From NCBI RefSeq assembly GCF_053078305.1, contig NZ_CP166879.1: DNA of 64,000 bases; one strand, written 5' to 3'. A program made the position numbers and the translations under genes. The first letter of the stretch is position 1. Each line of letters starts with the position of its first letter. Shown here in pieces: positions 16,992 through 17,039 of this stretch. Under the pieces are notes generated by a model, which searched no databases, was not told the DNA's origin, and saw nothing but the letters and a program-made list of their open reading frames with translations.

Positions 16992-17039
16992 TCAGGGGAA
17001 GGTAAAAAAGAATGCGAAGAAAAACGGTGTGTGTTTCAT
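16992..17039 (-). CDS. pheL: pheA leader peptide, 15 aa [15 protein letters not shown] (below the ORF-track size cutoff)
   Basis: Minus-strand ATGAAACACACACCGTTTTTCTTCGCATTCTTTTTTACCTTCCCCTGA; seven Phe codons in 15. Confidence 0.9.
   Translation of the reverse strand: [15 protein letters not shown]

Follow-up and report, generated by a model that had tools for sequence, protein, structure and literature searches.

The stretch of DNA analysed in this work (hereafter the window; 64,000 nt of contig NZ_CP166879.1, RefSeq assembly GCF_053078305.1) carries on its minus strand, at positions 16992..17039, a short open reading frame whose translation is that of the pheL leader peptide. Read from 17039 to 16992, its 15 codons begin with ATG AAA CAC ACA CCG and continue with TTT TTC TTC, GCA, TTC TTT TTT, ACC and TTC CCC before the stop codon TGA; seven of the 15 (codons 6-8, 10-12 and 14) thus specify Phe. 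The ORF ends in UUC_CCC_UGA (TTC CCC TGA in the DNA), the ending that defines a subgroup of enterobacterial pheL genes (Gurvich et al. 2011, PMC3082878). A cmscan search placed the Rfam family Phe_leader (RF01859), the complete pheA transcription attenuator, at 16915..17040 on the same strand, covering positions 1-125 of the 125 positions of the model with 132.2 bits (gathering score 55; E = 4.7e-25). Since the match is of full length and reaches this score, pheL is a genuine gene and a chance ORF is excluded. In RefSeq, the identical peptide is named 'pheA operon leader peptide PheL' (WP_001386991.1), and it is found at collinear coordinates in E. coli strain A16. In the 2 kb around pheL that were scanned (16000-18000), no other leader family gave a significant score; Arrc14, sraA, STnc130, ctRNA_p42d and other nearby Rfam matches, all far under their gathering thresholds, were disregarded.

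The regulated gene, pheA (15733..16893, minus strand), encodes a chorismate mutase/prephenate dehydratase of 386 aa; its ORF is intact, it is annotated as such in strain A16, and it follows the pheL stop codon after 98 nt, on the same strand. On the other side, pheL is preceded by raiA (17143-17484, minus strand), identified from the ORF list and from the annotation of strain A16, and the raiA terminator hairpin found by the terminator scan (17100..17119, minus strand) bounds the pheL unit on its upstream side. Between this hairpin and pheL, the sequence suggests a probable promoter at 17065..17094 (minus strand), with a -35 element TTGACA at 17094-17089 and a weak -10 element TACTGT at 17070-17065, which we take to be the pheA promoter known from K-12. 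This putative promoter stretch has the same sequence as in K-12 in our alignment, and a consensus promoter scan returned no qualifying sigma-70-like site. The T-tail of the raiA terminator (17119-17100) reaches into the TTGACA; if the latter is indeed the pheA -35 element, the termination of raiA and the initiation of pheL-pheA would share a few bases.

The leader RNA has the alternative pairings expected of an attenuator. A long 1:2 hairpin (pause/anti-antiterminator), which forms while the leader is free of ribosome, is predicted at 16950..17025 (minus strand) by the ViennaRNA minimum free energy (MFE) fold, in agreement with the Rfam consensus structure. The intrinsic 3:4 terminator occupies 16917..16945 (minus strand) and lies after the leader ORF and before pheA; the terminator scan delimited a stem-loop at 16945-16921 with 10 pairs, of which 7 are G-C, and a loop of 5, followed by a T-run (U-run 16922-16917 in the RNA), and this hairpin is also present in the fold of the 126-nt leader. 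Constrained folds gave a 2:3 antiterminator pairing at 16925..16999 (minus strand; -36.8 kcal/mol). According to the classical model, when charged tRNA-Phe is scarce, the ribosome translating pheL would stall at the seven Phe codons and cover segment 1, which would let the 2:3 antiterminator form and RNA polymerase continue into pheA; with ample Phe, the ribosome would get to the stop codon, the 3:4 terminator would form and transcription would stop. In silico, when 30-40 nt at the 5' end were masked to imitate ribosome stalling at the Phe codons, the 16999-16925 pairing formed; it uses up both arms of the terminator, so that a mutually exclusive antiterminator appears once segment 1 is covered. 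With 50 nt masked, as for a ribosome at the stop codon, the terminator returned. These predicted folds reproduce the classical attenuation logic of K-12 pheL.

Codon 4 of pheL (17028..17030, minus strand) is ACA, encoding Thr, in the window and ATA, encoding Ile, in K-12, the variable base being 17029. A previous reading of this DNA, made from the sequence alone, had pointed to this difference, and both the alignment and the translation of K-12 MG1655 PheL (MKHIP...) bear it out: K-12 has ATA, and not ACA, at this codon. We compared the homologous MG1655 region over 251 nt, a stretch that starts at the raiA terminator, takes in the promoter, pheL and the attenuator and ends in the first pheA codons. 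The two sequences are the same at 250 of these 251 nt, and ACA versus ATA at base 17029 is their sole difference. The window is thus outside the K-12 allele (WP_010723158.1), which has ATA (Ile) at codon 4, and carries the WP_001386991.1 allele. The terminator at 16917..16945 is the same as in K-12 in this alignment; the sequence-only reading was therefore right in holding that the Phe run and the hairpin region (16911-16946) are intact, since the stem-loop at 16945-16921 falls inside the latter and the rest of the leader is that of K-12. Its further proposal, that attenuation is probably unaffected, is a reasonable expectation from this identity and from the predicted structures, which are the same. 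Indeed, the near-complete identity with the characterised K-12 leader suggests that read-through in the window leader would also be controlled by Phe and tRNA-Phe.

The two alleles were also compared by folding. Base 17029 corresponds to position 12 of the Rfam model, whose first 15 positions are unpaired, pairing starting at position 16. With ViennaRNA, the 126-nt leader has an MFE of -51.7 kcal/mol and one and the same structure for ACA and AUA, and a 151-nt fragment gave -52.9 kcal/mol, again with the same structure and energy for both. The masked folds of ACA and AUA, including the antiterminator at -36.8 kcal/mol, were the same in every case. In the ensemble of the 151-nt fold, which has arbitrary flanks, the pairing probability of codon 4 was 0.33 for K-12 and 0.05 for the window, the MFE structure being unchanged. 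A structural effect of the codon 4 SNP was rejected, as neither the MFE folds nor the constrained folds differ between the alleles.

At a larger scale, window positions 15447-54713 are collinear with K-12; over these roughly 39 kb there are 608 mismatches, and the identity is 98.0-99.0%. The K-12 stretch used begins in tyrA, so that the comparison starts at window position 15447. The homology ends at 54713, at yfhL, where K-12 goes on with yfhH and the window with an integrase-bearing island. A non-K-12 background, which the sequence-only reading had also proposed, is therefore supported by the overall divergence and by an island that K-12 is without, far more than by the pheL base. Positions 54714-64000 form an integrative element beside yfhL; the matching DNA in O55:H7 CB9615 contains genes annotated as encoding a (tyrosine) integrase, an HTH regulator, an SNF2 helicase, a VRR-NUC protein, a YfbU-family protein, a DNA polymerase, DUF2815 and DUF2800, and a stretch of low GC (0.367) is found at 58-60 kb within the island region. 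Window positions 40000-64000 were covered to at least 80% in only 157 of the 5,426 complete E. coli genomes. For positions 1-25000, the best match among these genomes was strain A16, isolated from an otter, at only 99.6%, so that the strain of the window itself is absent from this collection; the pheL of A16 has a synonymous CAT at codon 3 where the window has CAC. The window also contains, on the plus strand at 23482-~28600, an rRNA operon corresponding to K-12 rrnG (16S, tRNA-Glu at 25109-25184, 23S and 5S), and the alignment with K-12 is briefly interrupted between 25088 and 25109, in the 16S-tRNA spacer.

The frequency of the alleles was determined by a megablast search of the 5,426 complete RefSeq E. 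coli genomes with the 48-nt ORF, in which exact matches were counted. The window allele (48 nt, 100% identity) was found in 3,564 genomes, including those of O157:H7, O26:H11 and O104:H4 strains, and the K-12 ORF in 1,392. A third allele, combining Thr4 with Ile13 (T13I; WP_001700969.1), came to light in a sample of the other matches with one mismatch and was present in 428. Thus, about 74% of the complete E. coli genomes have Thr4 and about 26% have Ile4: Thr4 (ACA) is the ordinary majority allele of E. coli, already known and annotated, and K-12 carries a minority variant. When the matches were sampled across their range, about 40% had the same 251 nt as the window. The pheL of BL21(DE3) is one mismatch away from that of K-12 and is annotated under the name of the Thr allele, which suggests that this strain probably carries Thr4 as well. 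The K-12 PheL allele is shared by S. flexneri 2a according to a figure legend of Gurvich et al. (PMC3082878). In the third allele (89-3156, EC21Z-097, 0H24, HN68), codon 13 changes from ACC to ATC together with a linked T to A change three bases past the stop codon, in a loop; through the codon 13 change, a pair that is C-G in the Rfam structure becomes U-G. In E. coli PCN061, which has a K-12-type allele, the pheL stop codon TGA has become AGA and the ORF extends (…FPRMGG…); PGAP labels it an incomplete pseudogene.

As K-12 has the minority allele, a difference from K-12 at this codon is no evidence of an unusual strain. The emphasis of the sequence-only reading has to be corrected on this point: Thr4 is not a distinguishing strain feature, and it excludes K-12-like strains and tells little else.

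To examine variation beyond E. coli, one genome per species (GTDB representatives) was scanned with a pattern that fixes all codons through 15 except codons 3 and 4. This yielded 112 loci, which tell of these two codons alone and give no measure of the conservation of the others, as those were fixed by the pattern. Position 3 was occupied by 12 different residues among the 112 enterobacterial species and position 4 by 8 (L 33, V 26, T 26, F 10, I 9, Q 6, S 1, H 1). Where Ile was found at position 4 in this set, its codon was ATC or ATT, never ATA. These results can be set beside those of Gurvich et al. (2011, PMC3082878), in whose enterobacterial pheL sequences the start codon AUG, the regulatory Phe codons and the UUC_CCC_UGA end alone were described as invariant, the rest being variable. 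Enterobacter sp. Bisph1, a soil MAG and three Kosakonia species have CCC AAT in place of CCC TGA, with a leader peptide of more than 15 residues, and these leaders depart from the UUC_CCC_UGA that was called invariant in the 19 enterobacterial sequences of that study (PMC3082878). A typical enterobacterial pheL was also found in a record titled Chryseobacterium sp. 18061, a genus of Bacteroidota; this assembly is most likely mislabelled or contaminated.

Within the genus Escherichia, codons 3-4 are CAT ACT in E. albertii (MKHT) and CAA ACG in E. whittamii and Escherichia sp. E1V33 (MKQT), and the pheL DNA of Escherichia sp. MOD1-EC7003 is identical to that of the window. The 112 pattern matches did not include the E. 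coli representative, E. fergusonii, E. marmotae or Salmonella (enterica). Because these four other Escherichia species all have Thr4, parsimony suggests that Ile4 is derived; Thr4 is probably ancestral in Escherichia, and the ATA of K-12 would have arisen by a C-to-T transition in ACA. This direction is drawn from four Escherichia species, with outgroups that are without E. fergusonii and Salmonella.

Taken together, we consider with high confidence that the window contains an ordinary pheL-pheA attenuator with the majority, probably ancestral Thr4 allele, and that the ACA/ATA difference is most likely neutral. Codon 4 precedes the Phe run, lies outside the paired segments and is freely variable in enterobacteria, and for these reasons the exchange is very probably neutral as judged from the sequences and the predicted folds. 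It might nevertheless be argued that codon 4 is functional. AUA is read by a minor, lysidine-modified tRNA-Ile2, and a ribosome at codon 4 would already have its leading edge at the base of the 1:2 hairpin; a rare AUA might then slow the ribosome at this codon and alter the release of the pause or the basal read-through. Alternatively, the Thr/Ile exchange might alter frameshifting at CCC_UGA. In favor of such a role, Ile is encoded least often by ATA in the genes of the window (28 of 416 Ile codons, or 6.7%; 4.0 per thousand; 25 genes, window 1-23038), and ATA occurs at position 4 in none of the 112 other species. However, ACA is also the least used codon of its family (12.6% of Thr codons, 6.5 per thousand), 8 very different residues are tolerated at position 4 across species, and both alleles have a high natural frequency. 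Concerning frameshifting, mutagenesis indicated that Pro5, Thr13 and Phe14 affect the roughly 15% +1 frameshifting at CCC_UGA (PMC3082878); this frameshifting was reported to be without influence on pheA expression (Gurvich et al. 2011, PMC3082878), and codon 4 is not singled out in the passages of that article considered here. In the same work, replacement of Thr13 by Gly increased frameshifting (PMC3082878), and position 13 is the one changed in the third E. coli allele. We therefore regard a functional codon 4 as very improbable. Since ATA is rarer than ACA in the window genes, there may be a small kinetic difference between the alleles in early translation of the leader; that a rare AUA/Ile would change when the leader is translated with respect to the paused polymerase, such that basal pheA expression differs between K-12-type and Thr4-type strains, seems very improbable.

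Two further explanations were weighed against neutral polymorphism of a common allele. Thr4 might mark an unusual lineage, or might have come by recombination with the nearby island. The window indeed belongs to a non-K-12 genome, the island is 38 kb away, and the best match over 25 kb among the complete genomes reaches only 99.6%, but Thr4 is the majority state: strains as diverse as O157:H7, O26:H11 and O104:H4 have it, and BL21(DE3) probably does too. This makes the explanation extremely improbable. A linkage between Thr4 and the island was rejected, the allele being present in ~74% of the genomes and the island-containing 24 kb being covered to at least 80% in 157. The C at 17029 might also be a sequencing or assembly error, for which nothing speaks beyond its being a single base; the same 48-nt ORF in 3,564 independent complete genomes led us to reject this explanation, whose probability is negligible.

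The codon 4 variant is a known polymorphism in a textbook attenuator, very probably neutral, and matters very little. As a strain marker, base 17029 rules out no more than the genomes that resemble K-12 at this site, roughly 26% of the complete ones. It does call for some caution, as the K-12 reference has a minority, probably derived pheL allele. If the rare codon of K-12 did turn out to act on leader translation, this would be a small refinement of the textbook attenuator, and the K-12 attenuator could not stand for the species as a whole.

Finally, the leader can be placed among known systems. The trpL, hisL, thrL, leuL and ilvL attenuators belong to the same class of mechanism, in which a ribosome stalled on the cognate codons picks the antiterminator or the terminator hairpin; their regulatory codons and sequences are different, and there is no sequence homology with pheL. 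Compared with K-12 pheL, the experimentally characterised phe attenuator, the window has the same Phe codons, hairpins, terminator and UUC_CCC_UGA, and differs at codon 4. With regard to RF01859 and the enterobacterial pheL group (PMC3082878), it shows the full-length match to the model, the conserved 3' end and the Phe run, and no substantial difference. Its closest counterparts are the genomes with the WP_001386991.1 allele (O157:H7, O26:H11, A16 and thousands more), in which the peptide is identical, pheL likewise lies between raiA and pheA, and pheL shows no difference apart from the synonymous CAT at codon 3 of A16, the closest genome overall.
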